A stretch of DNA of 63,495 nucleotides, filler included, from Octopus bimaculoides (GCF_001194135.2; 5 parts of 5 records of this genome joined end to end with filler, not necessarily neighbours in it); one strand, 5' to 3'. Shown: positions 16,461 through 61,844, counted from the whole stretch's first letter. Program-made: numbers and translations. The notes: generated from the letters alone by a model not told the origin.

Positions 16461-16627
16461 ATTATTTACATTATTTACAATTGACAGATATTTGACCTCA
16501 TCTTGCTTGTTGTTAACACAATGTTTCGGCTGATATACCCTCCAGCCTTCATCAGGAGTCTTGGGGAAATTTCGAACCTGGGTTCTCATTGCTAAGGTAT
16601 TCTTCGATGCTGTTCTTGTTGTTGTTG

Positions 16628-16666
<39 letters not shown>

Positions 16667-16737
16667 TCACTGCCTGGAATCGAACTTGGAATCTTTGGGT
16701 TAGTAGCCTGCGCTCTTAACTACTATGCCATATGCCC
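16461..16737 (-). mobile_element. tRNA-derived SINE (family C) with internal (AAT)n tract and 3' hammerhead module
   Basis: A box TGGCATAGTAG (16730-16720), B box GTTCGATTCC (16685-16676), (AAT)n tract, then CTGATGAAGGCTG..CAGCCGAAAC and an AT-rich tail. The tail is shared with copies at 16738-16909, 40533-40690 and 42953-43072. Confidence 0.8.
16515..16560 (-). ncRNA. Type I hammerhead motif in family C SINE, decayed
   Basis: CUGAUGA-A-GGCUG/CAGCC-GAAA intact; stem III ACAU instead of ACGU; stem I GACUC/GUGUU has one mismatch. Confidence 0.6.
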
Positions 16738-16751
16738 GAATAATAATAATG

Positions 16752-16796
<45 letters not shown>

Positions 16797-16909
16797 GCAA
16801 TAATAATAATAATAATAATAGCAACAATAACAACGATGAGAACCCAGGTTCGAAATGCCCCTCCCCCACAAGACACCTGATGAAGGCTAGAGGGTATATC
16901 AACCGAAAC
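16738..16909 (+). mobile_element. Headless inverted partner copy of family C
   Basis: (AAT)n + gatgagaacccaggttcgaaat..gacacCTGATGAaggctagagggtatatcaaccGAAAC; truncated by the LINE RT fragment. Confidence 0.75.
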
Positions 16910-17350
16910 TCATGTCGATACCCAGGTCCCGCACTGAGTTAGGTTCTGGGATTGTAATCCCTTGTGGACCAGTGTACCCTGTAAGTTTTACGTTCAGCTT
17001 AGGGTGCTGGTAGCGCAGGGCTTGGAATTTTCCAGCATTAAACTGCATATTATTGTCCTCGGCCCATCTGTAAATTGAGTCCAACTCCTGCTGCAGGTGT
17101 ACAACACCGTTAGGGTTTTGAATTTTCTGCGAGACTTCCGTATCGTCTGCGTAGCTAGCAAGGGTGGCTATCCGGGCAACTGAGGGCATATCTGAGTGGG
17201 CCACTATGAAAAGCAGTGGTCCCAAGACAGTGCCCTGAGGAACCCCACTCACTATTTGTGTTTTCTTTGATGTGGCTCCATTGGCCACGACTGCCTGACT
17301 TCTATCTTTCAGAAAGTCATGTCACCACTCTCTAAGTTTTCCAGCTACTT
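16910..17350 (-). mobile_element. LINE reverse transcriptase fragment (CR1/L2/Jockey-group style)
   Basis: FLKDRSQAVVANG..SGVPQGTVLGPLLF..YADDT..QQELDSIYRWAEDNNMQFN..K..VRDLGI (ORF 16899-17288 plus upstream sequence). Confidence 0.85.
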
Positions 17351-17936
17351 AAATAAAAGGGGTCCTTGGTAGTGGAAAAGTTGGGAACCACTGGTCTAAA
17401 AGGTGGAGATGTTCTCCGATGACGGAGAACTAAAGTAACCAGCAAATTCACGTTCGAATCTGGCCGAGAGTATTAAGAATGAAATAAATACATTCTTTCG
17501 GCATTTGAGAGAAACCTGTCTTCTCAATGGTTTCTCTTTAACGACACTAAATAACAATCTGGCAACATATCGACTGCACCGACCGGTTGCAGGGCAGTTG
17601 AGTAGAATAGTGCGTGGGTTTGAAGTAGGAAGTCAATTTAGATGGAGAAGTATCTGAAGACGAAGGATATAGTGTAGAGGTGAGACAAGTCAAACCTAAA
17701 TCTAAAGACAGCTTTATAAAACTTTATCGGTGAGATTATATGTCAACAGATATTATATTTCCTCTAAGCAGTGTGTGTTTGGGCGAGAGTAATATCACCG
17801 ATATATTTAGAGAGGTGCACAGTTACAAAAGGGGAGGGGCTGAGAGTAAATGTATTTGTAGATGAATCGGTTTGAAATATATATTATATATCTCCCAACC
17901 TCTGTGTGTGTATGTATGTATGAATATGTACACGCG

Positions 17937-17973
<37 letters not shown>

Positions 17974-18475
17974 ACACACACACACACATATATATAAGAA
18001 TGCATGTATATATTATGTATATATGTGTGTGGCGAGGGTGGGGAGAAGAGAGAGAGAGAGAGTGCGTGGAAAGTAAGCAGTTATTAAATTTCATTGTCAA
18101 AGCTATATACATGCGAAAGTATATTTCTTTGAAGCAAACGCGCGCACGTACACATACATGCATATATATATATATANNNNNNNNNNNNNNNNNNNNNNNN
18201 NNNNNNNNNNNNNNNNNNNNNNNNNNNNNNNNNNNNNNNNNNNNNNNNNNNNNNNNNNNNNNNNNNNNNNNNNNNNNNNNNNNNNNNNNNNNNNNNNNNN
18301 NNNNNNNNNNNNNNNNNNNNNNNNNNNNNNNNNNNNNNNNNNNNNNNNNNNNNNNNNNNNNNNNNNNNNNNNNNNNNNNNNNNNNNNNNNNNNNNNNNNN
18401 NNNNNNNNNNNNNNNNNNNNNNNNNNNNNNNNNNNNNNNNNNNNNNNNNNNNNNNNNNNNNNNNNNNNNNNNNNN

Positions 18476-18526
<51 letters not shown>

Positions 18527-18916
18527 TTACACATACACACATGTATATATATATATATGATATATATTCCAGTGCCGTGTCTGATGTGGGGGTCCATCAG
18601 AAATATGACACGCAAGAAAAACGAACTAAAATTGAATGTTCATGTTTCATGATTTATATTAATTGTAATCGATTTTTATTTTGTTTCTCTCCAAAAGTGA
18701 TTGAAGCTCGTACGATCAGTCCATGAAGACATAGGTGCGCATACACACACATTGTGTGTATGTATGCATATACGTACGTCTCTCTCTCTCTCTCCCCTTC
18801 TCTCTCTGTATATATATATTACATATGTACATATACACACACACAATTATACGTGCACCCATTCATACATATATGTGTGCATAAATGTTTACATACATAT
18901 ACACACCTACACACAC

Positions 18917-19007
<91 letters not shown>

Positions 19008-19362: not shown

Positions 19363-19397
<35 letters not shown>

Positions 19398-19690: not shown

Positions 19691-20768
19691 GTGAGTGTGA
19701 ATGAGATGATAGAATGGTTAGATACGCGGAAAAGGTGCCGCCGTTCCTCCATTGATTTTATTGTTTATAAACAGTTTTCTTCATTTCGTTTATAGATAAA
19801 ACTGATCCCCCAATGCTCACCGACTCCATAGAGTTGACATATTCTAAGTATTGCACAGCTCGATAGCTTCAAATTTGATAGTCTGGTGTATGTCACGGTC
19901 TAATAATGTGGGATATCAGTTTGGCTAGTTAATTGATACCTAGCGGTGAACCAGACCATAACATCTTACAGATGAGAATCATTGGGTACAAGTTCAATGG
20001 AATTAGTGACGTTAACTATTTTACATTATCTAGTGTTTCGTGGTTTATCCTTATAAGTTTAGAATCGATCAAAATGGGGTCACTGCTTCTGGGTCGAGAA
20101 TTATTAACACTTCAGATAATAACACAGCTCACTTGAAAACTATTTACTTCTTTTGTGAAAAGAATCTTCTCCCGGAAAAATAAGGTTTATTGTTTTTCAA
20201 TCCTTGACAATTTTCTGGTTATCTTCATCAAAATACTGCCTCCACACCGCCATTTTCACTACCTCAAGCACAGTATTATTAATACAAACTTACTTCCATC
20301 CACGACCACCACTACTACTACCACCACCAAGATCACTATTATCACTTCCATGACCCAAAACCGCCGTCACCGCCACCATCGTCACCACCACCACCACCGC
20401 CGTCACCACTGTCACCGCATCATCAACTGTTATTACCTCTACACCTCCTCAATTTCCACTTGATAGATTTATTTATTTATTTCGTTACATATTTCACTTC
20501 TTCACATTTTTGTTTTATTTTTCAAAAGAAACACTTTTACCAAATTCCATTAATGGAAATGACTTTCTTTAATGAATTACTTTTCTTCTCAAGAATTACT
20601 TTCTACAAATAAAAAAAAAAATCTTAAAAATAATGTCAAACAAATCTTAAAATGGAAACAGATTCTGGTTCAGCCAACCAGAAATTCTAAAGATTCTTCA
20701 TCAAAAAGTTTTCAGTTTTGATAGAAAATATCTCAGAGTTATTTTAATGATTGATATTATTAAATATA

Positions 20769-21182
20769 GCAAGCGGGCGAAATGCTTAGCGGCATTTCGT
20801 TTGTCTGTACGTTCTGAGTTCGCATTCCGCCGAGGTCGACTTTGTCCTTCATCCTTTCCAGGTCGATGAAATAAGTACCAGTTACGCACTGGGGTCGATG
20901 AAATCGACTATCCTCTTCCACCAAATTGCAGACCTTGTGCCCATAGTAGAAAGGATTATTAAATATAGCAGCGAGCTGGCAGAATCGTTAGCACGCCGGA
21001 CAAAATGTTTAACGACATCCCGTCCGTTTTTACGTTCTAAATCGAACTCCGTAGCGGTCGACTTTGCCTTTCATCCTTTTTGAGATTGATAAAATAAGTA
21101 CCAGTCATATACTAGGTTTGATGTACTCGACTTACTTCTTTCCCCGAACTTGCATGCCTGGCATCAAAATTTGGCACCAATA
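20769..21182 (+). mobile_element. Two tandem SINE family A copies (20769-20958, 20968-21182)
   Basis: Both carry gtcgactttg(t/c)c(c/t)ttcatccttt..ataagtaccag. Confidence 0.82.
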
Positions 21183-22478: not shown

Positions 22479-23183
22479 ACATTACAACGCTGCAGAAATA
22501 TATCATTATTCTAGAATACTTTAATACTTCGTGGTTATAAAAATAAATGAATGAATAAATAAATAATTAAATAAATATATAAATAAAAACATCAATATTC
22601 CGATACCGAAATATGATCGATAAGAAAAGCTGAAAATGTTGAAGTGTTACATAAATAGTTTTAGAAACAAAAAGAAACATTTTTTTTCTCCAAGATGGCT
22701 GAAGGTAGATAACGTTTGATATATTTGCAGATGATTGATAACAATACTTGTACGTTATGCTAAGTCTAAAACACAAGTTGTGAATAAATATACTTTGTGT
22801 CAGAAACAAACACTCACACACACACTCACACAGGCATACACACTTACACATACATACACACTCACAGAGAAACGTATACTCACACACATATTCATTCTAC
22901 TAAAATCAATTCGATTTACTTGAGTCGACGATATTTTATGAATACTCAAACCTGATGAAACAAATGTATGGCGAAATACCATCCACCCACCGCTATCCCT
23001 GCTATCATACAGGCGTAGTCCATCAATGGCTACATTATCTAATATATCCTTGCTGTTTTAATACAATAGCGTGTGATCTGATAAACATGTGGCTACCTTT
23101 TCTAGCAGGTCGAATGACCACATACAGTCTCCCTCGTTTGCATGTAAAATGTATCCATATCTGTTTCAATATTTTTGAGTTCC

Positions 23184-23401
23184 AAGGCGGCGAGGTGCCA
23201 GAATCGTTAGCACGCCGGGCGAAATGCTTAGCGGTATTTCGTCTGTCGCTACGTTCTGAGTTCAAATTCCGCCGAGGTCGACTTTGCCTTTCATCCTTTC
23301 GGGGTGGATAAATTAAGTACCAGTTGCGTACTGGGGTCGATCTAATCGACTGGCTCCATCCCCCAAAAATTTCGGGTCTTGTGCCTAGAGTAGAAAAGAA
23401 T
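23184..23401 (+). mobile_element. SINE family A, best-preserved copy
   Basis: Full head, central block and tail. Confidence 0.88.
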
Positions 23402-23560
23402 ATTTATGAGTTCCTTCACCACACCTACTAAATCTAAACGAATAATAAATTAATGCAAAAAAAAATCACAGAAGCTTTAGGAACTAAAGAAAGAAACTCT
23501 ATTAAAAACTAGAAAATTCAAATACAAAAGGGTGTTACTTCTGCCGCAATCTCTATAGTG

Positions 23561-23704
23561 GTTTCAAATTTTGACCCACGGTCTTCACCAGAATGAAAAG
23601 CAAAGTGGACCGCGGCAGATTTTGAACGCGGAACGTAAAGATGGACGAAATGCAGTTGAGAATTTATGCCCAGCGTGCTAACCATGCTGCCAGCTCACCG
23701 CCTT
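23561..23704 (-). mobile_element. SINE family A, diverged
   Basis: ccagctcaccgcctt head and gcaaagtggaccgcggcagattttgaac. Confidence 0.7.
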
Positions 23705-24269
23705 ATACAGAACATTTACAGCAATGAAATATATGAGCAAGTAAAGAGATTTTTATTGACTGAGAAGCGACCAGACAGATATTAAATCATAATATTTCTG
23801 TATTTAATTAAAAGTATTGCGTGGCTCGTATTCCGTAGTTTTATGCCCCACGTCGTTCTACACGGGATATAGAAGTGGAGTGTGGAACCCACTACTGAGC
23901 CCGAAAGTTTGGCTACGTGTTGTACTTCACAATACATACATATGCATGCATATTCTACACACACACACACACACCTAATTACTGACTGAAATCTCAAATA
24001 TACACTAAGTCCTTCAGTTAACAGGAAACCACAAAGTTGTTTTTAAAACTTTTGTTACTTGTGGTTTTGATTTAACAGGGTGCGCACCCGATTTTCGTTA
24101 TTATATCACAGTCATGCTGGAACACTGCCTTCAGGTGTTTAATATGTCATGTCAACCTAGTTCTTATTTCCCGCTCTTATTCATATTTATCGGTTTCTAT
24201 TTTTTCAACGGCTAAGTAACAGGATATAGAAATGCACAGCAGAAGCAGTAACGGTTTTTAGAGTGGGGT

Positions 24270-24446
24270 GACTATGTGGTAAGTAGCTTGCTTACTAACC
24301 ACATGGTTCCGGGTTCAGTCTCACTGCATGGCACCTTGGGCCCGTGTCTTCTATAGACTCGGGCCGACCAAAGACTTGTGAGTGGATTTGGCAGACGGAA
24401 ACTGAAGGAATCCCGTCGTGTATATATATATATATATATATATATA
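24270..24446 (+). mobile_element. SINE family B, 5' half
   Basis: tgtggtaagtagcttgc..ggttccgggttcagtc head plus body up to the (TA)n. Confidence 0.8.
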
Positions 24447-25890
24447 TGTGGCTTGTGTGTTTTCTCGTCTCTGTTTTGTTTGCAATGTCCTGTACCCAGA
24501 TATGCACCTATACATACAGGTGGATGTCGGTATGCACATACCTGTACGTATATATGCATATACTCATTTACTATTTGTTTTTACATGATTGAACGCAGCG
24601 TCTCCAACTGTAAGTAGTTTTCGTAAACTTATATATTTTCCGACGCTACTCTATCTCTTTCTCTTTCTCTATCTNNNNNNNNNNNNNNNNNNNNNNNNNN
24701 NNNNNNNNNNNNNNNNNNTTAATTAATTAANNNNNNNNNNNNNNNNNNNNNNNNNNNNNNNNNNNNNNNNNNNNCATGTACATTTTTTTATTTTAAAAGC
24801 AAAATATATTTATCTTAGCTTCAATGATAAAAAGATGGATGAAGAATTTCATAGTTTTGATCCCATGTAACAAAAAATTTGTGAGGTAAAATATCCTGAA
24901 ATATCCTGGATTCGAGTATAATTAACTTTTTTTTTATTTTAAAAACAAACTATATTTTAATTATGCTTAAATAATGGAGCTCAATTCGAGGAATTTTAAG
25001 GCATCAATCTCATGCAACGATGTTTTAAAAGAAAAAAGTTATGAGTGTTTGTTTTTCAAATTTGAGGGTGATAATATAGTTCTATACTTTTTTTAGGAAT
25101 ATAGTTCTATAAGGGACTTTTAATATGTGTTACCGGCATCATTGAGGTACGGAAAAAAACTGTCAACGACACCGATAATTTTCAATTAGTTTAATTACGT
25201 CATCTGTATTAATCCAATTTTATCATAAAAATGAAAATAATTAAAACATCATTTAGAAATTTTGGTAATTTTTCGTTTTAACTCGAAGGCGTATGAGTGG
25301 ATATGTACATTATGTTTAAAGTCAGCATAAAGTGAAAGAAAAAAGAAATGGACATGGATGTGCGTATGTGTTGATGGGAAAGAGACAGAAAGTGTGCGTT
25401 GTGTGTGTATGTGAGACAGACAGNNNNNNNNNNGAGGGATAACTTCCCTTGGAAGAAAATTTGCTTCATAGAAATCTGTTGTTCATATAAAAAAAAACAA
25501 CTCTCAGCTACAATAGTCCCTTATTGAGACGGAGGGTTGTAGATTTTTTTCTTATCGAAATACGATAAATAGGAAAAAAGTTCTCTTTATATTTCACAGT
25601 AAGCAACCAGGGTATGCGAATATGTATACAAGGGTATGAATTAGATAAAATCCGGCCTAGATATGTTTCATAGCGAGCGGAACCTCTACATTTATATTCT
25701 CCACTCCTCCTGTGCTCTCTACACATTCTGATTGAATCTTCCATGTGTTAACATGTACCTCCTTGCGACATTGTGAACTTTCCTTTAATCAAGATATCCT
25801 TGGTCTGAAGAGTAACCTATCCAAGCGCGAGGTGTATACCTTGCTTGGGTATTCACCATTTTCGAGTTTTCGCCCGCTATGAAACATATG

Positions 25891-26233
25891 CAGTCCCACT
25901 GCGTGGCATCTTGGGCAGGTATCTTCTACGATAACCTCGGACCGATGAACGGGAACGTGATACTCAGAGTAACAGTTTTTTGTTATATTTCTGCTGCTTT
26001 TAAATAAAGTATATATATATATATATTCATATGTTTGTGTGTCTGTGTTTGCCCCTCCATCATCGCTTGACAATCAATGTTGGAGTGTTTACGTTCGCAT
26101 AACTTAGCGGTTCGGCAAGGGAGACCGATAAAATAAGTACTAGGATTACAGAAGGGGTTGATTTTTTCGACTAAAGGCGGTGCTTCAGCATGGCTGCAAT
26201 CAAATGACTGAGACAAATAAAAGAATAAAAGAA
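25891..26233 (+). mobile_element. SINE family B
   Basis: cagtcccactgcgtggc..aaggcggtgcttcagcatgg..aataaaagaataaaagaa. Confidence 0.8.
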
Positions 26234-26301
26234 TATATATGTATGTACGTATATATATAACATATGAAAGAAAAAAAATGGAATTCACAAGATTATTTAT
26301 C

Positions 26302-26384
26302 AATCACTACGATCGTTTCGATACATCGTACATCGGTCCCTTGCGGGTGTGTCATTCGGTGCAGATGTGCCTCGTCAGGTGACT
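26302..26384 (-). ncRNA. Type I hammerhead ribozyme, near-intact
   Basis: Stem I AGUCAC/GUGAUU (6 bp), CUGACGA, stem II GGCACAUC/GAUGUAUC (7/8), GAAA, palindromic stem III ACGAUCGU, GUA site. Confidence 0.8.
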
Positions 26385-26451: not shown

Positions 26452-26506
26452 CCTATAACTGATGACATATAGGAGAGAGCATGAGTTAGAAACGATCGTA
26501 GTCATT
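26452..26506 (+). ncRNA. Degenerate hammerhead motif, inverted partner of 26302-26384
   Basis: CUGAUGA (26459-26465), GAA-ACGAUCGU-A (26489-26500); stems I and II are eroded. Confidence 0.45.
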
Positions 26507-27992
26507 AATAAAGAATCTCGTGAATTCTATTTTCTCTTTCTTTCATACATATAGACTTGACGGACACAAAGAAATTCCAGTGGAACTCATACCCCTACTA
26601 CTGATGAAACCAGGTAGCCGAACACAGTGAACGTGCTTTAAACAGTATACTACCAGGTGTATATCCAAATTTAAAATGATTATTTATATATCATTCAACT
26701 ACGGTACTCACACGCAGTATCTTCAAAGTTTTGTCGCTAATTCAGTTCTTAACCAAATTGAAAACTATTAACATTTTTGAAGAGGACTGGTCCCTGGCTA
26801 CATTTTGGCATAAAAACGTTGAGATTTGGTCCGGCAGAAAAAAAGTTTACATCAAAATTTGTAGCAACGTTATAGGAGAGTAAGTAACGCCTCCAATCAA
26901 GTTTACATGTACATTTTTTTATTTTAAAAGCAAAATATATTTATCTTAGCTTCAATGATAAAAAGATGGATGAAGAATTTCATAGTTTTGATCCCATGTA
27001 ACAAAAAATTTGTGAGGTAAAATATCCTGAAATATCCTGGATTCGAGTATAATTAACTTTTTTTTTATTTTAAAAACAAACTATATTTTAATTATGCTTA
27101 AATAATGGAGCTCAATTCGAGGAATTTTAAGGCATCAATCTCATGCAACGATGTTTTAAAAGAAAAAAGTTATGAGTGTTTGTTTTTCAAATTTGAGGNN
27201 NNNNNNNNNNNNNNNNNNNNNNNNNNNNNNNNNNNNNNNNNNNNNNNNNNNNNNNNNNNNNNNNNNNNNNNNNNNNNNNNNNNNNNNNNNNNNNNNNNNN
27301 NNNNNNNNNNNNNNNNNNNNNNNNNNNNNNNNNNNNNNNNNNNNNNNNNNNNNNNNNNNNNNNNNNNNNNNNNNNNNNNNNNNNNNNNNNNNNNNNNNNN
27401 NNNNNNNNNNNNNNNNNNNNNNNNNNNNNNNNNNNNNNNNNNNNNNNNNNNNNNNNNNNNNNNNNNNNNNNNNNNNNNNNNNNNNNNNNNNNNNNNNNNN
27501 NNNNNNNNNNNNNNNNNNNNNNNNNNNNNNNNNNNNNNNNNNNNNNNNNNNNNNNNNNNNNNNNNNNNNNNNNNNNNNNNNNNNNNNNNNNNNNNNNNNN
27601 NNNNNNNNNNNNNNNNNNNNNNNNNNNNNNNNNNNNNNNNNNNNNNNNNNNNNNNNNNNNNNNNNNNNNNNNNNNNNNNNNNNNNNNNNNNNNNNNNNNN
27701 NNNNNNNNNNNNNNNNNNNNNNNNNNNNNNNNNNNNNNNNNNNNNNNNNNNNNNNNNNCGTGTGTGTGTGTGTGTGACAGAGAGAGAGAGAGAGTGTTAG
27801 CGTAAATTTTACTTAGCTACTTATACATGAGAACACACACTTTCACTCAGTGACTGACTCACACGCACACATATAAAAAACATGTATGCATATGTATTTA
27901 TGCATGTACGTGTATAAGACAGATAATGGGTGTGCGTATGTATTTGTGTGCATGTGTGACTAACCCTACCCATTTTACAAATACATGGCAAC

Positions 27993-28028: not shown

Positions 28029-28336
28029 CAATCATTCACACACTCACTAAAAAGAAGATGCGAGAAAAACTAAATAAATTAAAAAATTATGCTATCACTC
28101 TCTCCCTTTCTCTCTCTCTCACACAGAGCAAGATACACCTTCTCTTTCTCTCTCTGTCTCTCTCTTTCTCTCTCCCTGACAACACCTCTCTCTCCTCTCT
28201 CTCTCTCTCTCTCACACACACATACACACACAACACACGCTTTAAATTTATAATTCACTTTTCAATAAGGTAAAATCTTAATTTATTAATTGACACATTA
28301 TTAATTAGCATAATAGCATAGACTGGAAAAACATGG

Positions 28337-29135: not shown

Positions 29136-29145
29136 ACATATATAT

Positions 29146-31160
29146 ACAAACCTCACCCACCCCATATATACTTAAGGGACCATAAAGAAAATTTTGTTGC
29201 GAACCCTTCCATTCACCTTATATGCTCCTCCAGTTCTGATGTAGGTAGGATTAGCAAAGTTATCTTTGATAAATTTCTACCCCACCTTCGTACCAAGATT
29301 ATATGAAACCTCTGGACTAACACCACTGAAGTTAGCCAATGGTTTAAGTCCTTAACCCACAAAAGTAAATATAGATTCATTCAAGTAGATATAGACCAAT
29401 ATTATTCCAATGTATCTCTTATCCTACTTAACAAAGCCCTCATATTCGCACTAAAATATTATGACCTAACTAGAAACGATATTGGTATTATCCTGACAGC
29501 CCGTCGAACTGTTATAAAATTCAACGGTAAACTTTGGGCCAGCAAGGACACTCCCAACTACCTTGACATCCCAATGGCGGTGAGCGACTCGACCCAAATT
29601 ACTGACCTTGTAGGATGCTACCTGCTCCACTGCCTCCGAGACCAATTCCTTAATATTTCCAGTGGTCTATATAAGAACGACACTCTGTTTTGCGGTCCCC
29701 AACTTTAGTAACCGGAAAATCGAACAGCTACGTAAGAAAGGTAGGTTCTTCTGTTAAAACGTGAGCCTTAGCGTATCTTTCTCTTACAGCTTTAAAACCG
29801 CAAATTTCCTAGATGTCATTCTGGATTTACAAACCGACGCCTTCTACATACACCATAGACCTGGGGAAGACTAAATTAAGATAACTTTTCTTTTAATCAT
29901 CACCTTATGTCCTAAAATATATCATAGATACTGTGTCCTATAGAATCACATCCTATCCGCTAATAGGGAAATATTCGAGCAATACGCAGAATATTACAAC
30001 AGCGTCTTACACCGCACTGGATATAAAATTTCGGTTGGATACCCCCTACATGGAGCGAGCTCTTACACCATCCCATGAACCGCAGATAAACCCTTAGGTA
30101 AAAACCCGAGACATACCCCGTATTCCACCCTTCCCTCATCTCCAGAATTTAAACTTAGTAGCAAATCCTATATACACTCTTCCCACCTGGGGTTCGGGAT
30201 ACCGGAATAAACGGAATAAACGGAATAAACGGATCAGGACACGCGACGTTGTCTGGTTTCACTCCACTCCGCCCTCAATGTTCAGACCCGACTATCTAAG
30301 ATTTTCTTTTTACTCTACTTGAAAAACATTTCCCTTGATCCAATACGCTTAGGAAAATCTTTAACCCTCAATCTATTAAATTTACCAACTCCACCACTAC
30401 CTTCTATGCCGGTATAATCCGGAGGCAATAAGAAATTATGCAACCAACAACCTTTATGGTACAAATACAACACCCTATAACCTCCAGTCCCTCAACAATG
30501 TCATCATTAAACCTTCTTAACAACGCCGGCCCCCCACCCAACCAGCCCCAATTCTAACACCCCTCCCCCCACGCCTAATTCACTTAACCAACCAAATGAT
30601 CCGGTTAAACCGACTACTGAAGGAGAGAATAATAGGAATAATATGGAGAACTACTATAAGTTACACCTCCCGAATGGCTCCTTCACCATCACAGCCAATA
30701 CCAATCCTAACGCCGAGGTCAATACTAAATATAACACCCAGTAATCATAACCCCATAAACTCCACCTTAGCACCCTCTGGAAGTCTATGTAGCTGTAGAC
30801 GCCCCGCATCCTGTCCATTGGAAAATAAATGCCTCACGAAAAATATAGTGTATATATAGTCTCCACGGAAGATTCCAAGTATGTATGTATCGGTTCGTGC
30901 AGCGTCAACTTCAAAGTAAGAATTACTAACCATTATTCTAGCTTTAGATTCCAAGTAAAAACTAATAAAACCTCTTTATCTAGGGTCATTCATAACGTAA
31001 AAAATATCTCAATTGTACACAGTTTAAAATGCTTTATTGTAACCTATACCAAACCGTATATCCATTATAACAAATGCAGTCTCTTCGTAACAGAAGTTTT
31101 TCTATTATGCAATGCAGCAACTGATTTAATGCGCGAAGCCACCTTATTCTTAATTGTCGA
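29146..31160 (+). mobile_element. Decayed Penelope-like retroelement (RT + GIY-YIG endonuclease)
   Basis: Manual translation: LRDHKENF..SDVGRISKVIFD..WTNTTEVSQWF..FIQVDIDQYY..DLVGCYLL..SGLYKNDTL (degenerate YRDD), then RDVVWFH and LLEKHFP. GIY-YIG region CSCRRPASCPLENKCLTKNIVY..YVCIGS..FKVRITNHYSSF (ORFs 30596-30859 and 30829-31185). Stops and frameshifts present. Confidence 0.88.
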
Positions 31161-33883: not shown

Positions 33884-35924
33884 TTAATTGCTTTTGAGAC
33901 AATAACAAAAAGGTCGTAATTTAGGTATCGCAATACAGTTTCCATGGCTGCCGTATTTATTGGTCCGACTAATGCCACCAACAAGTGTACATGATTTATC
34001 TTTGATTTGATAACGGACAGTCGCATCAAACAGCCCTTTACCCGGCAATGTGGAAATAGTTATCTGATAATCTATATAACTTTGTTCTGCTAAATCACCG
34101 TAGGCCACATATCTGTCAATAACATCATGATGACTATATTCAAAACGCATCATCTCGGCGTTGGCTTTGATCATTGAAGCTTCTAATATTTCACTCAACC
34201 GAACTTTCGAGCATACGTTTCTATATTCTAATGTTAAATTGTTAATTATCTTTACTAATTGCTCAGCAATATCAATAACTGTATCATCACTAGTACTCAC
34301 TGCTGTAGTCTGATGACAGGCACACCAATGAGGTAAAATAGTTGCACTTTTACAAGACCTTTCTTCCGGAACTCTAGAGAACAAACTAATGCTTTTCATT
34401 TTTTCGGGAGAATATCTTTGCACTGTAGAATATTTCAAATTGGCTTTCTCTATATGGAGGGCATCTATCAACGTTTCATGAATGTCAAATGGTGTTGTGA
34501 GACGGTGAGAATTAATTTTTATGTTATTCAAAAGGTTTGGGTAGCGATGTTTGAAGAAAGGAGGTGGAATGATAAACATGAAAGGTAATCTTTCTTCGAG
34601 TCGACCTACGTATGTCTTGCGAAATGATCCGAATCGGATGCCGTGATCAGAAAAAAATACAACAAGGGTGTTATTAAGAAGTTGTTCATCATTTAACGTT
34701 TTGAAAAACTTATAATATTCAGCGTCACAGCGACCAGCTTTGTTGATGTCGTCATGAGTGAGACGCCCAATAAAAGATAAACTAAAATATGGGATGTCCT
34801 TGTAGACTCTCGCAAAGTCATAAATATATTGGAGAATTATAGCTGTTTCTGTTCGATCTCGAACGCAGTCTTTCGTCCAGATTGATTTCTCTTCCTCCAT
34901 TGCGAGAGCAAATGGTCTATAATAATGGTCCGTAGGTTGTTGTTTGAAACCAAATTTTAAATAATTAAACGTCCCTATAGGAGGGTCGTCCTCTGCAAAC
35001 AAAGTAGTAAATCCATGATTCTTATATCGCTTCCACAGGAAATTGTATTTATCTAATGGTAATCCACTCAGCGTTTCGTTCCATGGAAGCTCTTCTAGAT
35101 ACTTACCAGTAAGTAAAGGAACCAAGTTCACAAATGTATTATCCGCAACTTTATTGTAGCCGAGCATACCAATGGCACCCAATTTTAATATATAACGATG
35201 TGTCATTTGCATTTGTCGCAAAAAGTTTAAGCGTGACATGGAATCAATACCAACTAGAAGAATATTAATGGGGTTCTTTACAAACGAAGTGGTCGCTGTT
35301 GCCTTCATAGTAGTTTTTAAACTGGAGACAGTTGTTTTTCTATAATTTTTGTTAATATTTGTTAACATTGTTTCAATTCTTGTGGTCAGAACATTTTCTT
35401 TGGGCTTGATGTTTTTTTTATGAATAAAAGCATGAAAATTTGTATAGATCACGTCATTTTTTAGCCCATAACATTGAACTTTAATAAATTCGTCTTTTAT
35501 CTTTATGTCATTATTAAAGTGTGTAAATGCAGGAAGATATTCAAACGAGTGGTCATCTTTATCCAATCTACGAATAGGAAAGACTTTACAAATATTGAAG
35601 TTTCCTCTGTGCTTGTACTTTATTAACGAATGGTTTAGTCTTAAGATTGAACCATCTTGATGAGTAAGAGAATGAGGTTCGGCACACGGTTTCCAGAAGC
35701 TAACACTAAAGTACGTTTTCACTGATGATTCAAACGGGTCTATATCTGGAATGTGGCAAAATTTGGTGCTTACTAGAAGTCCGACTGCCGTAAAATTCGA
35801 CTGCACCTTCGGAGTGCTTGGCCATCGGAAGTTATACATCAACAACAATAAACCGCAAGGCAGAACGCAGAAAAGTACGTAACGACGAATGAAGCATCGA
35901 CACGACAATTTGTTTAAGAGAACT
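33884..35924 (-). CDS. DUF229-family protein (alkaline phosphatase/sulfatase-like superfamily), type II membrane protein; large final coding exon, start codon probably in an upstream exon
   Basis: Uninterrupted 674-codon ORF. Motifs INILLVGIDSMSRLNFLR, GYNKVADNTFVNLVPLLTG, QPTDHYYRPF, HDD, FFSDHGIRFG, LEERLP, RLTTPFDIHETL and C-terminal LRPFCYC match my recollection of DUF229. N-terminal RRYVLFCVLPCGLLLLMY looks like a signal anchor. The ORF-track start at 35908 is TTG, not ATG; the frame stays open to a T-rich tract + TTGCAG acceptor (AG at 35926-35925). Confidence 0.92.
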
Positions 35925-37890: not shown

Positions 37891-39017
37891 NNNNNNNNNN
37901 NNNNNNNNNNNNNNNNNNNNNNNNNNNNNNNNNNNNNNNNNNNNNNNNNNNNNNNNNNNNNNNNNNNNNNNNNNNNNNNNNNNNNNNNNNNNNNNNNNNN
38001 NNNNNNNNNNNNNNNNNNNNNNNNNNNNNNNNNNNNNNNNNNNNNNNNNNNNNNNNNNNNNNNNNNNNNNNNNNNNNNNNNNNNNNNNNNNNNNNNNNNN
38101 NNNNNNNNNNNNNNNNNNNNNNNNNNNNNNNNNNNNNNNNNNNNNNNNNNNNNNNNNNNNNNNNNNNNNNNNNNNNNNNNNNNNNNNNNNNNNNNNNNNN
38201 NNNNNNNNNNNNNNNNNNNNNNNNNNNNNNNNNNNNNNNNNNNNNNNNNNNNNNNNNNNNNNNNNNNNNNNNNNNNNNNNNNNNNNNNNNNNNNNNNNNN
38301 NNNNNNNNNNNNNNNNNNNNNNNNNNNNNNNNNNNNNNNNNNNNNNNNNNNNNNNNNNNNNNNNNNNNNNNNNNNNNNNNNNNNNNNNNNNNNNNNNNNN
38401 NNNNNNNNNNNNNNNNNNNNNNNNNNNNNNNNNNNNNNNNNNNNNNNNNNNNNNNNNNNNNNNNNNNNNNNNNNNNNNNNNNNNNNNNNNNNNNNNNNNN
38501 NNNNNNNNNNNNNNNNNNNNNNNNNNNNNNNNNNNNNNNNNNNNNNNNNNNNNNNNNNNNNNNNNNNNNNNNNNNNNNNNNNNNNNNNNNNNNNNNNNNN
38601 NNNNNNNNNNNNNNNNNNNNNNNNNNNNNNNNNNNNNNNNNNNNNNNNNNNNNNNNNNNNNNNNNNNNNNNNNNNNNNNNNNNNNNNNNNNNNNNNNNNN
38701 NNNNNNNNNNNNNNNNNNNNNNNNNNNNNNNNNNNNNNNNNNNNNNNNNNNNNNNNNNNNNNNNNNNNNNNNNNNNNNNNNNNNNNNNNNNNNNNNNNNN
38801 NNNNATATATCGGTATTGTATTTTTAGGTGTTTAATTTTATTAATCTTTATTAGTTTGTTAATTTTTAAATTTAATTTAAAATTTTGAAAAATATATTTA
38901 TAAGTAATATATTTTTTTATTGTATCTTTATTTATATTCTTATTTTTCTATTTAATATGTATTAGAATATGTAGTTTTAGCTTTGATCCGTTAATAATTA
39001 TGACAACAATAAGATAA

Positions 39018-39095
39018 ATAGCCTGAGGACGCACTGGTTGACTTATGTATTAGATATAGCCTGGACACCACCAGCGCAGAAACACGTGTAGCAAT
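39018..39095 (+). ncRNA. Type I hammerhead ribozyme, palindromic stem III
   Basis: AUAGC-CUGAGGA-CGCACUGGU..ACCAGCGCA-GAA-ACACGUGU-A-GCAAU; stem II 7/9, stem I 4/5. Confidence 0.7.
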
Positions 39096-39615
39096 GATTA
39101 AAAATATCTTATTTCCCCACAAACTAATAACAGGTAAGGTATATATATTTGTTCAAATATTTTTCTTAAATAAGTTTTAAATAATTTTATTGTACTTTAG
39201 GGTAGGTTTTAAAATGCTTATATTATTTTATTATTATATAAGATATAACTTTTTATGTGTATTCTAGACAACAAGGTTGTCCTGAAATAGGGGTTGCGGT
39301 CCTATTGGTAAAATCCCAAATTTGTAATTTTATAAATGATACTGTCTACATTGCAGTAGTAAAGTGTAAAATAATAAATGTCCTGATAACATGGAATACT
39401 TATTATTCCTTAAGTTTTTAATATATATATATATATATATATTATTATCATTATTATTATTATTATTATATGTATTTATTTTCTGTAAGTTAATAATTAA
39501 CTCGGACAAAATAAATTGGTTAATACATACCAGGGTAGCAAAGATCACAAAATGACTGTGGTGTAACTCCTGTTTATGAGGTAGAAGCTCTTTGTTATTT
39601 TGGGTACTTGAGTAA

Positions 39616-40004
39616 ATATATAAATCTAGTAAATGGAGTAAAACGCATATGTTAAATGAATTCTTTTATTTCCAACATGTTTCTAAGATTACAAATTATA
39701 CCTTCCATAGGAATAGGTGATGTTGATAAGGATGTAATCTTCTCTTCAGGGAAATACATAGGAACCAGCTTAACGGTAAGACATTTTAACCAAATATGAT
39801 AACTGTAGTTAGAGAAGATTGCTACGTAACTTATTTGAAAAAGCCGTTGGAGGTTCCTATGTATTTCCCGGAAGAGAAGATTACATCCTTATCAACATCA
39901 CCTATTCCTATGGAAGGTATAATTTTTAATCTTCAAAACATATGTTGGAAATAAAAGAATTCATTTAACATATGAGTTTTACTTCATTTACTAAATTTAT
40001 ATAT
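39616..40004. mobile_element. Hairpin MITE with about 150-bp inverted arms
   Basis: 39616-39766 and 39852-40004 are near-perfect reverse complements around an 85-bp spacer; TA-rich ends. Confidence 0.8.
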
Positions 40005-40532: not shown

Positions 40533-40690
40533 CATTATTTACATTATTTACATTTGATGGATATTTGTCCTCATCTTGTTTGTTGTTAACACAACGTTTC
40601 GGCTAATATACCCTCCAGCCTTCATCAGGTTTCTTGGGGAAATTTCGAACCTGAGTTCTCATTCCTAAGGGTCCTCATTCCTAAGATACC
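40533..40690 (-). mobile_element. Family C 3' module (left arm of composite insertion)
   Basis: Near-identical to the 16461-16610 tail. Confidence 0.8.
40588..40633 (-). ncRNA. Type I minimal hammerhead ribozyme in family C module
   Basis: GAAAC-CUGAUGA-A-GGCUG(GAGGGUAUAU)UAGCC-GAA-ACGU-U-GUGUU. Intact core, 5-bp stem II, palindromic ACGU stem III, GUU site, stem I 4/5 paired. Confidence 0.72.
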
Positions 40691-42952: not shown

Positions 42953-43072
42953 CTGGAGGGGATATCAGCCGAAACGTTGTGTTAACAACAAACAAGATGA
43001 GGACAAATATCCGTGAAATGTAAATAATTTAAATAATGTACATAATTCCTCATCTCTTAAATATAGAACTGT
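42953..43072 (+). mobile_element. Family C 3' module (right arm of composite insertion; 5' part in gap)
   Basis: ctggaggggatatcagccgaaacgttgtgttaacaacaaacaagatgaggacaaatat... Confidence 0.8.
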
Positions 43073-44470: not shown

Positions 44471-44529
44471 ATTTAGCTGAAGATCAGAATAGAGTATTTA
44501 CTCTTAACTGTGAAACAATTGTACTAAAT
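44471..44529 (+). ncRNA. Type I hammerhead ribozyme, palindromic stem III
   Basis: AUUUAG-CUGAAGA-UCAGAAUAGAGU(AUUU)ACUCUUAACUGU-GAA-ACAAUUGU-A-CUAAAU. Perfect 6-bp stem I; stem II partly eroded. Confidence 0.75.
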
Positions 44530-49703: not shown

Positions 49704-49790
<87 letters not shown>

Positions 49791-49832
49791 ACGGGCTTTT
49801 TTCAGTTTCCGTCAACCAAATCCACTCACAAG
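49473..49832 (-). mobile_element. SINE family B
   Basis: Tail, (TA)n and body in reverse complement. Confidence 0.82.
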
Positions 49833-57495: not shown

Positions 57496-57526
<31 letters not shown>

Positions 57527-59126
57527 NNNNNNNNNNNNNNNNNNNNNNNNNNNNNNNNNNNNNNNNNNNNNNNNNNNNNNNNNNNNNNNNNNNNNNNNNN
57601 NNNNNNNNNNNNNNNNNNNNNNNNNNNNNNNNNNNNNNNNNNNNNNNNNNNNNNNNNNNNNNNNNNNNNNNNNNNNNNNNNNNNNNNNNNNNNNNNNNNN
57701 NNNNNNNNNNNNNNNNNNNNNNNNNNNNNNNNNNNNNNNNNNNNNNNNNNNNNNNNNNNNNNNNNNNNNNNNNNNNNNNNNNNNNNNNNNNNNNNNNNNN
57801 NNNNNNNNNNNNNNNNNNNNNNNNNNNNNNNNNNNNNNNNNNNNNNNNNNNNNNNNNNNNNNNNNNNNNNNNNNNNNNNNNNNNNNNNNNNNNNNNNNNN
57901 NNNNNNNNNNNNNNNNNNNNNNNNNNNNNNNNNNNNNNNNNNNNNNNNNNNNNNNNNNNNNNNNNNNNNNNNNNNNNNNNNNNNNNNNNNNNNNNNNNNN
58001 NNNNNNNNNNNNNNNNNNNNNNNNNNNNNNNNNNNNNNNNNNNNNNNNNNNNNNNNNNNNNNNNNNNNNNNNNNNNNNNNNNNNNNNNNNNNNNNNNNNN
58101 NNNNNNNNNNNNNNNNNNNNNNNNNNNNNNNNGATATTCCACTCGTTAATCTCAGTCATATAATGCGAAAGTAACTGGTATATGTTAGCGATTATTAATA
58201 TTATATATTATCAATATTAAAGAAAAAAGAAAATGGAGAAAAACATGGATATATGAATAATTTATGTTATAAAATGCTGAAAATTTCTTTTTAAAAACAT
58301 AACAGTACAAATAAATCGATTACAAGTTGTAAATCTCGAAAATATAGAATAAAGGAACCTACATATATGTTTCAGTCCTATCATCTAGTTGATCAGATGT
58401 TTTAAGCATTTGGTTAAGTCCTAAGAAAGGTATCATATCCGAACTAAATGGGGTAGGACTACTTCAGGGTTAGTTCTGAGCTTATGGAACTTAGGTTATG
58501 ATTTTTCTTTTGAAGGATGCATACAGAGTATCTGTGAGTTTAAGAAGTTAAAAGCTATATATAGTAAGTGTATCTATGTGATGGGTTACATATATTCATG
58601 AATATAACATATATTAGAAAACAAATCAATAAAATACGCATAAAAAATAAAATCAAAAAGATAAGATATAAACAATTTTAAAATAAAAATATAAAATGTA
58701 ATAAACTAAATAATAATCACCTATACATTTTTCTTACTGGTTTGGTAAAAGATACAGTTGTGGAAAGGTATAGAGGAGTAGTAAAATGTGACATAATCAG
58801 AATCGAGGATAGAAGAAAGTTTGAAAATTAACCGTTATAATGTGTATCTAGTAACATTAACTTATAAATCGTATTTCAGTAGGATATGTAAATGCATATT
58901 TAAGTGCATATTTAAGATTAATCCATTTGGGCGTTGGGACATGAACATCAAATACATAGTTACTCGTACGTATTTTATTGAGCATACGTATACATATATA
59001 TACACACACACACATAAACAAAACATNNNNNNNNNNNNNNNNNNNNNNNNNNNNNNNNNNNNNNNNNNNNTTAATTAATTAANNNNNNNNNNNNNNNNNN
59101 NNNNNNNNNNNNNNNNNNNNNNNNNN

Positions 59127-59184
<58 letters not shown>

Positions 59185-59914
59185 GACAAGGAAGAATAAG
59201 AGAAGTAGAAGAAGAAGAGAAGATGGAGAAGAAAGAGAGGAAAAGGAAGAGAAGAAAAAGAAGACACATTTATATATACATATACATGTACATACACACA
59301 TTGAAATACAAAGAGAGTGACGGAACTAGATAAATAGATAGATGAACAGACAGATAGATAGAGGAGGAGTAAAGATGTGAATGCTATAAAAATACATTTG
59401 GAGAAAGAAGTTAAGGAGGAAAGGAGACTGGATTGAGTAATAAGGCAGAACAAGGTACTAAGAATCACCATTGTTTTACATCCTTCTTGAATTTCCATAT
59501 CTCCAGATAAACAATGCTTGAACTTTACGCATTAACATACATACATGCCGACACGTAGACTTAACAATCATGCACGATTGCACCACACGCAACACTGATC
59601 AGGTATTAAAAGTATTGCTTACTTATCTCCAAATCTCTGATGATCCTGGAAGCAGCGTTGCTGCTACTTGACGAAACATCTTGCAAGTTGCAAGACGAAA
59701 TACGAAATAACACATTCACCGAACGCATTGCGTTCTTCTGGTTTTCTTTTTAATTCACAGATACCTTAGCTCTGTGACTAAGAATCAATCAATCAAGCCA
59801 TACATACACAAACACACACACGTGCGTATATACTTCACGGCAACAATACTATACAATTCTATACAATTTTTGAAGGCGTGAAACTTATAGTAGCTCGTAT
59901 TTAAATCTTACATA

Positions 59915-60028
59915 TATTGATTTCAAATTCTGGCGTAATATTGGCAGTCTCAGAAGAGGGGACAAGGCAATTACATGCCGCTTAGCATTTTACTCGATAT
60001 GCTAACGATTCTGCCAGCTCACCGCCTT
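59915..60028 (-). mobile_element. SINE family A, internally deleted
   Basis: gctaacgattctgccagctcaccgcctt head. Confidence 0.6.
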
Positions 60029-60487
60029 GAATTCTATGTATATCGAAAGATATTTATCTTTCACTGAATGGAGTGCTACTTTTGTACTTTTTCTGATCCT
60101 ACCAATAACGGAACAGTATATTATTTCACTGTATGTGTGTGATGTTTGCACGTGTGTGTACTTAAGTGTGTTTGTGCGTATATACATACATACATACATA
60201 CATACATACATACATANNNNNNNNNNNNNNNNNNNNNNNNNNNNNNNNNNNNNNNNNNNNNNNNNNNNNNNNNNNNNNNNNNNNNNNNNNNNNNNNNNNN
60301 NNNNNNNNNNNNNNNNNNNNNNNNNNNNNNNNNNNNNNNNNNNNNNNNNNNNNNNNNNNNNNNNNNNNNNNNNNNNNNNNNNNNNNNNNNNNNNNNNNNN
60401 NNNNNNNNNNNNNNNNNNNNNNNNNNNNNNNNNNNNNNATTCATTCTCGATTCGTTTACTGCTGTTCTTATTTGGACTCATGTTTAT

Positions 60488-60532
60488 TGTCTGGAAATCT
60501 TTCGTCACACACCTGTAACCTCTTCAGCGACA
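60488..60532 (-). ncRNA. Probable decayed hammerhead motif
   Basis: UGUCG-CUGAAGA-G-GUUAC(AGGUGU)GUGAC-GAA-AGAUUU-C-CAGACA; stem III is one base from the palindrome AGAUCU; AATAAA follows. Confidence 0.45.
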
Positions 60533-60602
60533 CTTTCCTTCCTCGTATGTGCTCCTATTCTGCTTAGTCCATTCTGTTCTAAACGTGTATGTATGTGCGT
60601 GC

Positions 60603-60639
<37 letters not shown>

Positions 60640-60659
60640 AGCACAGATCCAGGAGTTTT

Positions 60660-60841
60660 TGAGAGTGGTAGGAAGTCGATTACATCGATCCCAGTGCGCA
60701 ACTGGTACTTGTTTTATCGATCTCACAAGGTTGAAACGCAAAGTCGATCTCGGCGGAATTTGAGCTCAGAACGTAAAGACGGACAAAATGCCACTAAGCA
60801 CAGAGTCTGATGTGCTAACGATTTTACGAATTCGCCACCTT
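60660..60841 (-). mobile_element. SINE family A
   Basis: Reverse complement of the consensus. Confidence 0.8.
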
Positions 60842-61673
60842 CAATGATGACGATGATGACGATGATGATGATGATGATGACGATGATGATGATGGCGGCG
60901 TAGAAGTTATGCGGTTATAAATGCCACTTTAAATGAGTTGATCTGCACTGAATTATCCCGTGGCCATTAATGAAGAGTGTGTGATGAGCACCAACAAATA
61001 CCAAACCTTCAACTAATGTGACGAGTTCATTCCTTTCCAGCGGTTTAACGACGACAGGAAATTGGAAGTAAATGGCGTCAATGAAGCGAAATTGATCAAA
61101 AAGGAGAATATAATTTACCGACACTGATCTCTGCTCATGGCGTCGTGAAGGATCGGATTAAGTTAAGGTTAAACTTATATATAAAATTAGTCGTTTGAAT
61201 ATGTTTAAATTACTATGAGTATGTATATAAATCACTCGTAATATAATTATTAATTGCTCGGGGGAAATGTATTATATACATGCATACAAGCACACACACA
61301 CACACACGCTTATATATATATATATATATATATACGCAAGCAGACGTACATATACGTATATATGCATATTTAAATACATACATGTGTGTGTGTCTGTGTG
61401 TCTGTGTGTCTGTGTATCAACAGCGTGCAAAATGGTTGTGTATCCCAGGTACATGTATCCCGTCAACGTAATTATCCAGCAGACAGCGTAATGAAGTGGG
61501 ACCTTAGATATACAGACATCCCATCCGATGGGCTTGGCAAGACGAACTACTAGCGTTCTACCTCAGATTTGCGTTTGGCCGTACGGCTTTTGAATGTTGT
61601 TTTCACTGTCCATTTTTTCCTGTCTTGGTTTGTGTTTGCCACCTTGGAATCCTCTGTGTAGTGGGTTGATCCA

Positions 61674-61844
61674 CTACTCAGGAAGAGACTATTCTAGAGT
61701 ACGTTCTGTCTTGTCTTCGAAACGTCTAGATAGAATAGAGACAGCTGACGTTAGAACAATAAACTACAGACAACGGAACGAACACATAGGAAAACGGAAA
61801 GCCACTTGGAATATCCCTTCATCAGCTGTCTCTATTCTATCTAG
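61674..61844. repeat. Degenerate hammerhead followed by a 23-bp perfect inverted repeat carrying a second core half
   Basis: CUCAGGA..GAA-ACGU-C (61677-61726); IR ctagatagaatagagacagctga at 61726-61748 and 61822-61844; minus-strand CTGATGA at 61825-61819. Confidence 0.6.

Follow-up and report, generated by a model that had tools for sequence, protein, structure and literature searches.

The window analysed here, 63,495 nucleotides of Octopus bimaculoides DNA, was described in a first-pass annotation as carrying a dense repertoire of hammerhead motifs, in which unrelated loci would each preserve a different self-complementary stem III and through which host pre-mRNAs could be cleaved. This raises the question of the origin of these motifs and of their possible activity. 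The available evidence makes it probable that they are decayed minimal type I hammerheads derived from the 3' pseudo-LTRs (pLTRs) of several Penelope-like families and from non-autonomous derivatives of these elements, and that the present copies are likely inactive.

Local dinucleotide shuffles (500 of them), the control that the first-pass annotation had proposed, place the motif class above chance. Sites combining the core, a palindrome and the H nucleotide number 7 in the window, for a mean of 1.0 in the shuffles, none of which reaches 7. With at least four of the six stem I pairs added, 5 sites remain against a mean of 0.14, a count again reached in 0 of 500. Palindromes of at least 8 nt occur four times (0.09 in shuffles), and a run of at least three stem II pairs adjoining the core occurs once (0.11; reached by 56 of the 500 shuffles). 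When the palindrome is not required, sites with at least five contiguous stem I pairs are palindromic in 3 of 3 cases (9 of 197 in shuffles), and those with looser stems in 3 of 6 (25 of 760) and 4 of 10 (21 of 884). The idea that AT-rich repeat DNA produced the motifs by chance finds some echo in the bare CUGANGA box, which is not enriched (30 in the window, 27 in shuffles), in the one or so core-plus-palindrome match that shuffles yield per window, in the unremarkable folding z-scores of eight whole motifs (-1.4 to +1.0) and in true chance matches such as 55797 and the box at 26459, but its probability is negligible, since the counts with stem I, the three palindromes among three strong stem I matches and the repair of both stems in the majority sequence of family A refute it for the motif set overall and confine it to single weak loci. 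The scan match at 55797, with stem I 0/6, was discarded as a chance match, and CUGAUGA at 26459, as well as 47017, 4854 and 1465, as chance or non-ribozyme; 60527, 59637, 26603 and 22952 were excluded from the locus count.

Rfam gives no hammerhead match in the window at the gathering score; below it, the matches are to miRNAs and are driven by microsatellites, besides a weak Hammerhead_3 match at 37648-37716 (23.5 bits for the hammerhead at 37684, gathering score 48.5). At family A, no hammerhead appears even at E values up to 10. Exact-motif scans of metagenome contigs and of viral contigs gave no match.

Counting broken and half copies, 13 loci in 8 lineages can be listed (Table 1), and it is only on this count that the "about 12 motifs" initially proposed stand: five loci have both boxes, a palindrome and at least 4/6 stem I pairs, a further one (37684) possesses a complete stem III and seven are broken or partial. 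All five in the first group, which also have the H nucleotide, carry at least one stem defect each. The palindromes do lie where the first-pass annotation placed them. Four of the seven loci bear out its claim that each keeps CUGANGA, GAAA and a stem I of its own; 42974, 26492 and 61722 are devoid of a usable core, the CUGANGA position of 42974(+) falling in an N gap and 26492(+) pairing 1/6 in stem I and 2/6 in stem II. Nor are the loci unrelated. Comparison of repeat copies within the window by BLAST shows that 40594 and 42974 are 94% identical and belong to the same family as 16555 and 16877, and that 26492 corresponds, in inverted orientation, to the 3' half of the 26309 element (86% over 59 nt). 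No second copy of D, E, 37684 or 61722 was found by BLAST within the window. The family C hammerhead at 39616..39766 was absent from the first-pass annotation.

Table 1. Hammerhead motifs and neighbouring features of the window.
Feature	Position	Strand	Remarks
Family A copy, decayed	16461..16613	-	C3 16555; palindrome ACAU; stem I mismatch; tail absent
(TAA)n/(CAA)n linker 5' of family A body	16614..16662	-	from sequence
tRNA-like head, A box (16730) and B box	16660..16740	-	boxes 33 nt apart
Family A inverted copy (AAT run and body)	16739..16909	+	abuts tRNA-like head
Family B hammerhead	26302..26384	-	C3 26378; palindrome ACGAUCGU 26316-26309; stem I 6/6, stem II 5/6
Family B inverted 5'-truncated half copy	26489..26547	+	starts at GAAAC; not a ribozyme
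Broken retroelement ORF	29136..31095	+	from HMMER relatives
DUF229 host gene, main coding exon	33884..35924	-	first coding exon not found in window
Type I hammerhead (37684), full 5-bp stem III and tetraloop	37670..37739	+	6-bp stem II; stem I 5/6; not palindromic
Lineage D, decayed	39017..39096	+	palindrome ACACGUGU 39082-39089; stems I and II each 4/6
Family C hammerhead	39616..39766	-	C3 39749; palindrome ACAUGU; stem I 7 bp
Family C inverted partner	39852..40000	+	94% identity; both core boxes broken
Family A copy, minimal type I hammerhead	40534..40670	-	C3 40628; palindrome ACGU 40597-40594; H17=U 40593
Family A copy, inverted partner of 40534-40670	42953..43072	+	5' half in N gap
Lineage E	44471..44529	+	palindrome ACAAUUGU 44515-44522; stem I 6/6; stem II 3/6, U.U at base
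Probable decayed hammerhead (58467)	58356..58471	-	relaxed scan, without shuffle control
Dead remnant (61722)	61703..61736	+	9-bp stem-I-like helix around GAAACGUC; CUGANGA box absent

The build of the core varies from one lineage to the next. Family A has both an extra base between positions 9 and 10.1 and the G10.1-C11.1 pair; family B keeps the pair without the extra base, family C retains C11.1 solely in its broken partner, and lineages D and E have neither. In the family C copy with C3 at 39749, the 9 bp of stem II stand above a G.A mismatch at 10.1-11.1. The family A copy at 40534..40670(-) forms 4/6 pairs in stem I and 6/6 in stem II, with an extra A before stem II; one stem I mismatch sets it apart from the family majority. 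In that majority, as seen in sequencing runs, a 5-bp stem I is restored (96-98% of DNA depth at 40631), as is stem II (99% at 40605), with the extra A and G10.1-C11.1. The hammerhead at 37684 has a U.U adjoining the core in stem I. The probable hammerhead at 58356..58471 combines a first box one base off, a long stem II (z -2.2), a 10-nt palindrome and a stem I of 4 bp.

Five families carry five distinct palindromes. All start with AC and end with GU, ends that the hammerhead core already favours, so that variation between families is limited to the inner one or two pairs. Predicted energies (-1.7 to -10.3 kcal/mol for palindrome duplexes, +2.4 to +6.0 for monomer hairpins) indicate that the palindromes would be stable only as two-copy duplexes; the stem III of 37684 is predicted to be stable as a monomer. 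For minimal hammerheads of Penelope type, dimeric cleavage via a palindromic stem III is the model already published (PMC4209133). The selection on dimeric cleavage put forward in the first-pass annotation is plausible in the source elements, and is not a new proposal.

By analogy with this published class, two same-strand copies in the source elements would pair their palindromes into a single extended stem III, and the paired copies would cleave the tandem precursor RNA on the 3' side of H17. An inverted partner truncated at its 5' end would often arise during insertion. Copies would then mutate, the founder's palindrome staying in each family. The window has four inverted pairs whose 5' ends face each other (16555/16877, 26378/26489, 39749/39868 and 40628/42974). 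Minimal hammerheads are described as mostly solo, with pairs on opposite strands at distances of 100-700 bp and numerous consensus families in a genome (PMC4209133), and Penelope-like elements as leaving an inverted 5'-truncated copy and a 30-40 bp tail, with microsatellites as reportedly preferred targets (PMC8557442). A 34-bp 3' tail is present at 43039-43072 in the 42953..43072 copy, is absent from its partner at 40534-40670, and recurs across family A in the loose ends of sequencing-run alignments. No head-to-tail or direct partial tandem of the hammerhead unit was detected by BLAST in the window, which lowers the claim of full elements and leaves that of remnants unaffected. Likewise, no motif is linked to a Penelope ORF or its 3' pLTR within the window. 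The "high density" of motifs initially noted becomes unremarkable because Penelope-like elements make up 6.83% of the genome of the congener O. vulgaris, in 190 families (PMC13282606 supplement).

The window contains one retroelement coding remnant (29136..31095). A word-seeded protein search with its RT remnant gave no match and a HMMER search found relatives, the best full-length of which show an RT with a short GIY-YIG-like region on its C-terminal side (Pfam GIY-YIG in 1 of 12 relatives, E 0.0023). This suggests, at the sequence level, that the ORF is Penelope-like; its motifs make it probably of Hydra type. A Naiad-like identity, also considered from motifs, is opposed by the order of RT and C-terminal nuclease-like region in the relatives. 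A hammerhead box sought at 31080-31480, the 3' end of the ORF, was not found, and no RT or GIY-YIG Pfam match appeared in the 60 ORFs scanned of 104 candidates around the motifs.

Could these motifs act on host transcripts? An active repertoire cleaving intron-containing pre-mRNAs in cis or in trans, or domesticated like the intronic hammerheads of amniotes (PMC6155905), is highly improbable. Family A is indeed found in RNA, at about 440-530 reads per million records, and 95-96% of these reads continue into unlike sequence, so that same-family dimers could meet in trans; moreover, 6-7 bp of stem I are kept in three copies, and the monomer-stable stem III predicted for 37684 would suit such a role. 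However, every copy examined is defective either in the core or in a core-proximal pair, and published minimal hammerheads are reported as uncleaved when monomeric and poorly cleaved as dimers (PMC4209133). As neighbouring copies are inverted, only one of each pair is sense, and predicted folds bind 73 of 76 core nucleotides of the C pair, and 31-33 of 33-36 of the A pair, to the inverted partner; the B pair, with 12 of 71, is less sequestered. Since all copies examined are imperfect and long duplexes over the core are predicted for two inverted pairs, the proposed cleavage of host pre-mRNAs is unsupported. Decay of core CpGs points the same way: it equals background, reaching 8.6-17.2% at C15.2, G12 and C11.1 of family A and 12.9-17.2% at three positions outside the ribozyme (depth-weighted contigs). 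Core variants reach 21-28% in RNA reads, above the 9-17% of DNA contigs, an excess that fits the cutting of intact copies, but frequencies outside the core are raised as well (18-26%). Read ends do not pile up in two RNA runs, which is a weak test. As to the DUF229 gene, three loci above its exon are sense and six antisense, its upstream exons were not found, and 37684 lies on the opposite strand. Altogether, it is unlikely that these motifs cut host messenger RNAs.

The type I topology and the short non-coding units also recall non-LTR retrozymes, which consist of 150-400 bp units in tandem, produce circular RNAs, are known in molluscs (PMC7229834) and have been proposed to descend from Penelope pLTRs (bioRxiv 10.64898/2026.07.22.740005); the more canonical build of 37684 would agree with this. 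The absence of any head-to-tail tandem of the hammerhead unit from the window, where partners are inverted, makes this reading improbable. Moreover, the search for circular RNAs suggested in the first-pass annotation revealed no RNA go-back joint in the rows listed, from a library with no recorded circle enrichment. A go-back joint of 117 nt was seen in one contig in each of two DNA runs.

Family A may have had a more particular history. It could be a polymerase III SINE in which a (TAA)n linker connects a tRNA-like head to a hammerhead tail of Penelope type, and which a Penelope-like RT/endonuclease acting in trans would have brought to very high copy number, a reading that is possible without being the favoured one. 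Its 5' boundary is fixed behind a (TAA)n run and, together with an A/B-box head joined to the body via (TAA)n in one copy, makes family A more SINE-like than a randomly truncated pLTR. This boundary recurs in hundreds of contigs, and a linker like that at 16614..16662 is found in 256 and 185 contigs and in 1118 and 775 RNA reads (about 1,900). The family is abundant (23,665 and 21,337 contigs in two DNA runs) and found in runs of four organism labels, the alignments coming from one organism's runs; its inverted partner and optional tail are of Penelope type. However, only one of the four window copies has the head (the 5' part of one being in a gap), and, as the loose ends span 30 letters, the family-wide evidence covers the (TAA)n linker only. 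The A and B boxes each depart by one mismatch from the consensus. Their pair is unique within the window, a score obtained without shuffle control, and neither ARAGORN nor Rfam calls the head. The latter could also be a separate SINE inserted in a microsatellite between two inverted copies, the more so as Penelope-like elements are reported to favour such targets (PMC8557442), and a translated read-through search for head plus body found none. The inverted copy at 16739..16909(+) stops within the palindrome, at GAAAC, and a LINE RT fragment comes next. More doubtful still is the full proposal of a very high-copy Penelope-dependent SINE, spread by Penelope-like rather than LINE machinery and whose ribozyme would trim its own transcript; no such cephalopod SINE was found in a literature search by title and abstract. 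A SINE origin of family A is compatible with the explanation of the other families as Penelope remnants.

Penelope-type hammerheads are already known from animal genomes, where they are common, and the present analysis extends this ribozyme class to octopus. Because Rfam misses the octopus motifs, cephalopod ribozyme counts are too low. The five palindromes form a natural set with which to ask whether palindrome identity blocks cross-pairing between families, a question that bears on what Penelope hammerheads do. If family A were mobilised by Penelope-like elements, this would add a new class of SINE partner and would explain part of the octopus SINE expansion.

The closest known system is provided by the minimal hammerheads of Penelope-like elements (Cervera and De la Peña, 2014, PMC4209133). 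As described there, they share with the octopus motifs the type I topology, a short stem I, a long stem II, palindromic 15.2-16.2 and loop 3, divergent families, solo motifs and opposite-strand pairs, and family A has the same extra base A9/10.1 and G10.1-C11.1. The octopus palindromes differ in reaching 8-10 nt, and a full Penelope ORF flanked by motifs is absent from the window. The sections of PMC4209133 consulted do not name Octopus; its supplement and those of PMC7229834 and PMC8557442 may list octopus hammerheads. With the insertions of Penelope-like elements, including the Hydra clade (Craig et al., 2021, PMC8557442), the window has in common the inverted 5'-truncated copy, the 30-40 bp tail at one end and the microsatellites. 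It differs from the elements described in that paper by the absence of a direct partial tandem (pLTR) and by a sole coding remnant that has lost, or never showed, a hammerhead. Non-LTR retrozymes, as presented in PMC7229834 and bioRxiv 10.64898/2026.07.22.740005, are likewise non-autonomous repeats with type I hammerheads and a link to Penelope pLTRs, but their definition rests on head-to-tail tandems and on circular RNA, and the octopus motifs show neither. Finally, the Schistosoma Sm-alpha and Sj-alpha elements, in the descriptions given by PMC6765202 and PMC6155905, would share with family A a promoter-bearing head and, behind it, a type I hammerhead within a short non-coding repeat, if the head indeed belongs to the family; their hammerheads are canonical and often in tandem, whereas family A has a minimal Penelope-type motif, a microsatellite linker and inverted partners.

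Hammerhead motifs in the window were sought with a strict pattern (CUGANGA, then 6-90 nt, GAAA, a palindrome of 4-12 nt starting at A15.1, and H, the cleavage-site base) and compared with 500 local dinucleotide shuffles. Seven sites matched, versus 1.0 in the shuffles (max 6; n = 500), and five also had at least 4 of 6 stem I pairs, versus 0.14 (max 2; n = 500). In the window, the bare CUGANGA box showed no enrichment over shuffles, and a contiguous core-proximal stem II was not significant (1 versus 0.11; 56 of 500 shuffles). To avoid circularity, a second test dropped the palindrome requirement. Sites with at least 5 contiguous stem I pairs were then palindromic in 3 of 3 cases, versus 9 of 197 in shuffled sequence; under looser stem I criteria, the fractions were 3/6 and 4/10. 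Given the excess over shuffles and the palindromes at strong stem I sites, the motif class is therefore real. The first-pass annotation is thus borne out for the class, but only four of its seven named loci (26309, 39082, 40594 and 44515) pass, and 42974, 26492 and 61722 do not.

At 42974, the first box falls in an N gap. The 26492 locus duplicates half of 26309 in inverted orientation, starting at GAAAC, and the CUGAUGA upstream of it lacks matching stems. Locus 61722 has a 9-bp flanking helix and GAAACGUC, without CUGANGA. This dead motif is adjoined by a perfect inverted repeat of 23 bp enclosing 73 nt (61726-61844), probably another truncated, inverted repeat end, whose minus arm runs into CUGAUGA and a short hairpin without GAAA. 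Loci absent from the named seven were added: 39749(-), whose partner 39868(+) is broken, 37684(+), a hammerhead with a full 5-bp stem III, and 58467(-), a probable remnant. The tally reaches 13 loci in 8 lineages, with no perfect copy among those examined; weaker hammerhead-like remnants at 60527(-), 59637(+), 26603(+) and 22952(+) were left uncounted. The motif at 37684, on the strand opposite the DUF229 gene, has a full stem III, an uncommon feature in motifs from animals; its stem I consists of two parts with an internal loop, and the core-proximal pair is U.U.

The loci had been taken as unrelated, which does not hold. Those at 16555, 16877, 40628 (the 40594 element) and 42974 form one family, A (identity 81-94%), and families B (26378/26489, the 26309 and 26492 elements) and C (39749/39868) are pairs. 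In each of the four pairs, the copies lie inverted with their 5' ends facing each other. One family A copy (42974) carries a 3' tail of 34 bp, which is absent from its partner. In two cases, the inverted partners at 16909 and 26489, the break falls at GAAAC, no more than a few bases from the centre of the palindrome or from the cleavage site.

Two DNA and two RNA runs were mapped to 40420-40800, around a family A copy, at 85% likeness. The DNA runs gave 23,665 and 21,337 matching contigs and the RNA runs, of which about 6% each was sampled, 6,810 and 5,311 reads; these counts take in flanks and a short LINE end, with depth concentrated on 40534-40670. In the majority sequence, stem I is restored to 5 bp and stem II to 5-6 bp, an extra A follows A9, and G10.1-C11.1 is present. 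Among the positions listed (G16.2 lies outside these), CpG decay affects 8.6-17.2% of contig depth at C15.2, G12 and C11.1, with G12 near the lower bound; for CpGs beyond the ribozyme, the range is 12.9-17.2%. This likeness suggests that genomic family A copies are free of selection for the ribozyme, contig depth not being equivalent to copy number. RNA reads run equally in both directions, although the library may be unstranded, and 95-96% of them continue into other loci. No pile-up of read ends was seen anywhere on 40420-40800 in the two RNA runs. Variants are more frequent in RNA than in DNA, both inside and outside the core. Loose ends share a 5' boundary that is fixed and follows a (TAA)n run, as well as the 3' tail of 42974. 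An opposite-strand joint at 40555-40584 (66 and 45 RNA reads in runs X22 and X23), absent among the DNA contigs listed, may reflect an inverted copy that is expressed, or template switching at a hairpin.

Predicted monomer hairpins of the palindromes are unstable (+2.4 to +6.0 kcal/mol), and two-copy duplexes are predicted to be favourable (-1.7 to -10.3 kcal/mol). In predicted folds of the C pair and of the A pair at 16.5-16.9 kb, the inverted partner pairs with nearly all core bases; in the B pair, 12 of 71 core bases are so paired. In parent elements that are active, a double hammerhead formed by two copies on the same strand would process tandem transcripts, and inserted copies would decay. 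The proposed selection on the palindrome fits such parents and is already the published model. Cleavage of host pre-mRNAs by the window copies, as had been suggested, is unsupported; cleavage in trans could come from rare intact copies of family A at other sites.

At the start of the copy at 16740-16461 is a tRNA-like head. By the usual consensus, no other A-box/B-box pair occurs in the window; neither ARAGORN nor Rfam called this head. A (TAA)n linker joins it to the family A body, and family-wide occurrence was shown for the linker only. The head may be a separate insertion. If head and body belonged together throughout family A, the family would be a SINE with a Penelope-type tail. The full reading, in which a SINE with tRNA-like head, (TAA)n linker and Penelope-type hammerhead tail spreads in a Penelope-like manner, its ribozyme trimming its own transcript, seems to us rather unlikely. 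Hammerhead-bearing SINE-like elements are described in schistosomes in the available text of PMC6765202.

The window, which includes 6,361 N, is animal DNA rich in AT and in microsatellites. It contains a single long host exon, coding for a DUF229 protein; named members of the 90% cluster of this protein come from Octopus sinensis, O. vulgaris and O. bimaculoides.

Features located in the window (feature, position, strand, remarks)
Hammerhead with full 5-bp stem III (37684)	37670-37739	+	type I
LINE fragment, presumably RLE-type by its motifs	40700-42832	+	between the 40628 and 42974 copies; Pfam zf-RVT, E 0.0017
LINE RT fragment	16902-17321	-	Pfam RVT_1, E 8e-11
Abundant 200-230 bp interspersed repeat, probably a SINE	6295-6519, 10156-10645, 15318-15519, 20753-21154, 23181-23409, 23585-23705, 60656-60841		about 10 copies; without hammerhead
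Second abundant interspersed repeat family	12522-12840, 24334-24447, 26010-26266, 45877-46086, 49443-49833		
Interstitial TTAGGG-type arrays	47883-48608		exact duplication of 274 bp on either side of a small gap; possibly an assembly artefact
LTR retrotransposon remnant, presumably Ty3/gypsy-like by its motifs	50899-52548	+	gap-broken
Tc1/mariner-like transposase fragment	43740-44177	-	weak HTH matches
Local inverted repeats	28333-28525 / 28986-29139 and 43350-43392 / 43586-43628		possibly DNA transposon ends

The window includes a broken Penelope-like ORF (29136-31095). The 400 bp that follow it showed no hammerhead box, and no other coding link of the motifs to a Penelope ORF was found among 60 of 104 ORFs scanned and 7 more; the case for Penelope membership therefore relies on the anatomy of the ribozymes and of the insertions. 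We found no description of octopus Penelope hammerheads in the literature searched, which included PMC10886601, PMC4758252, PMC8967140, PMC7229834, PMC6155905 and bioRxiv 10.64898/2026.07.22.740005, although repeat databases, further key papers or paper supplements may hold one; the motifs are a known ribozyme kind in a host for which we found no explicit report. Giant squid has 235 Rfam hammerhead-1 matches (PMC6962438, in part), and the available text of PMC13282606 gives Penelope-like elements as 6.83% of the O. vulgaris genome, in 190 families. A dozen remnants per 57 kb of called bases would therefore be unsurprising. An inverted 5'-truncated partner, a 30-40 bp tail and microsatellite targeting appear for Penelope-like elements in the accessible portion of Craig et al. 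(2021; PMC8557442). The window motifs share traits of the minimal hammerheads which, in the sections available of Cervera and De la Pena (2014; PMC4209133), sit in Penelope pLTRs, form many families per genome, mostly as solo motifs, occur in opposite-strand pairs spaced by 100-700 bp, carry an extra base before stem II, as family A does here, and a palindromic 15.2-16.2, and are inactive as monomers, with low activity as dimers.
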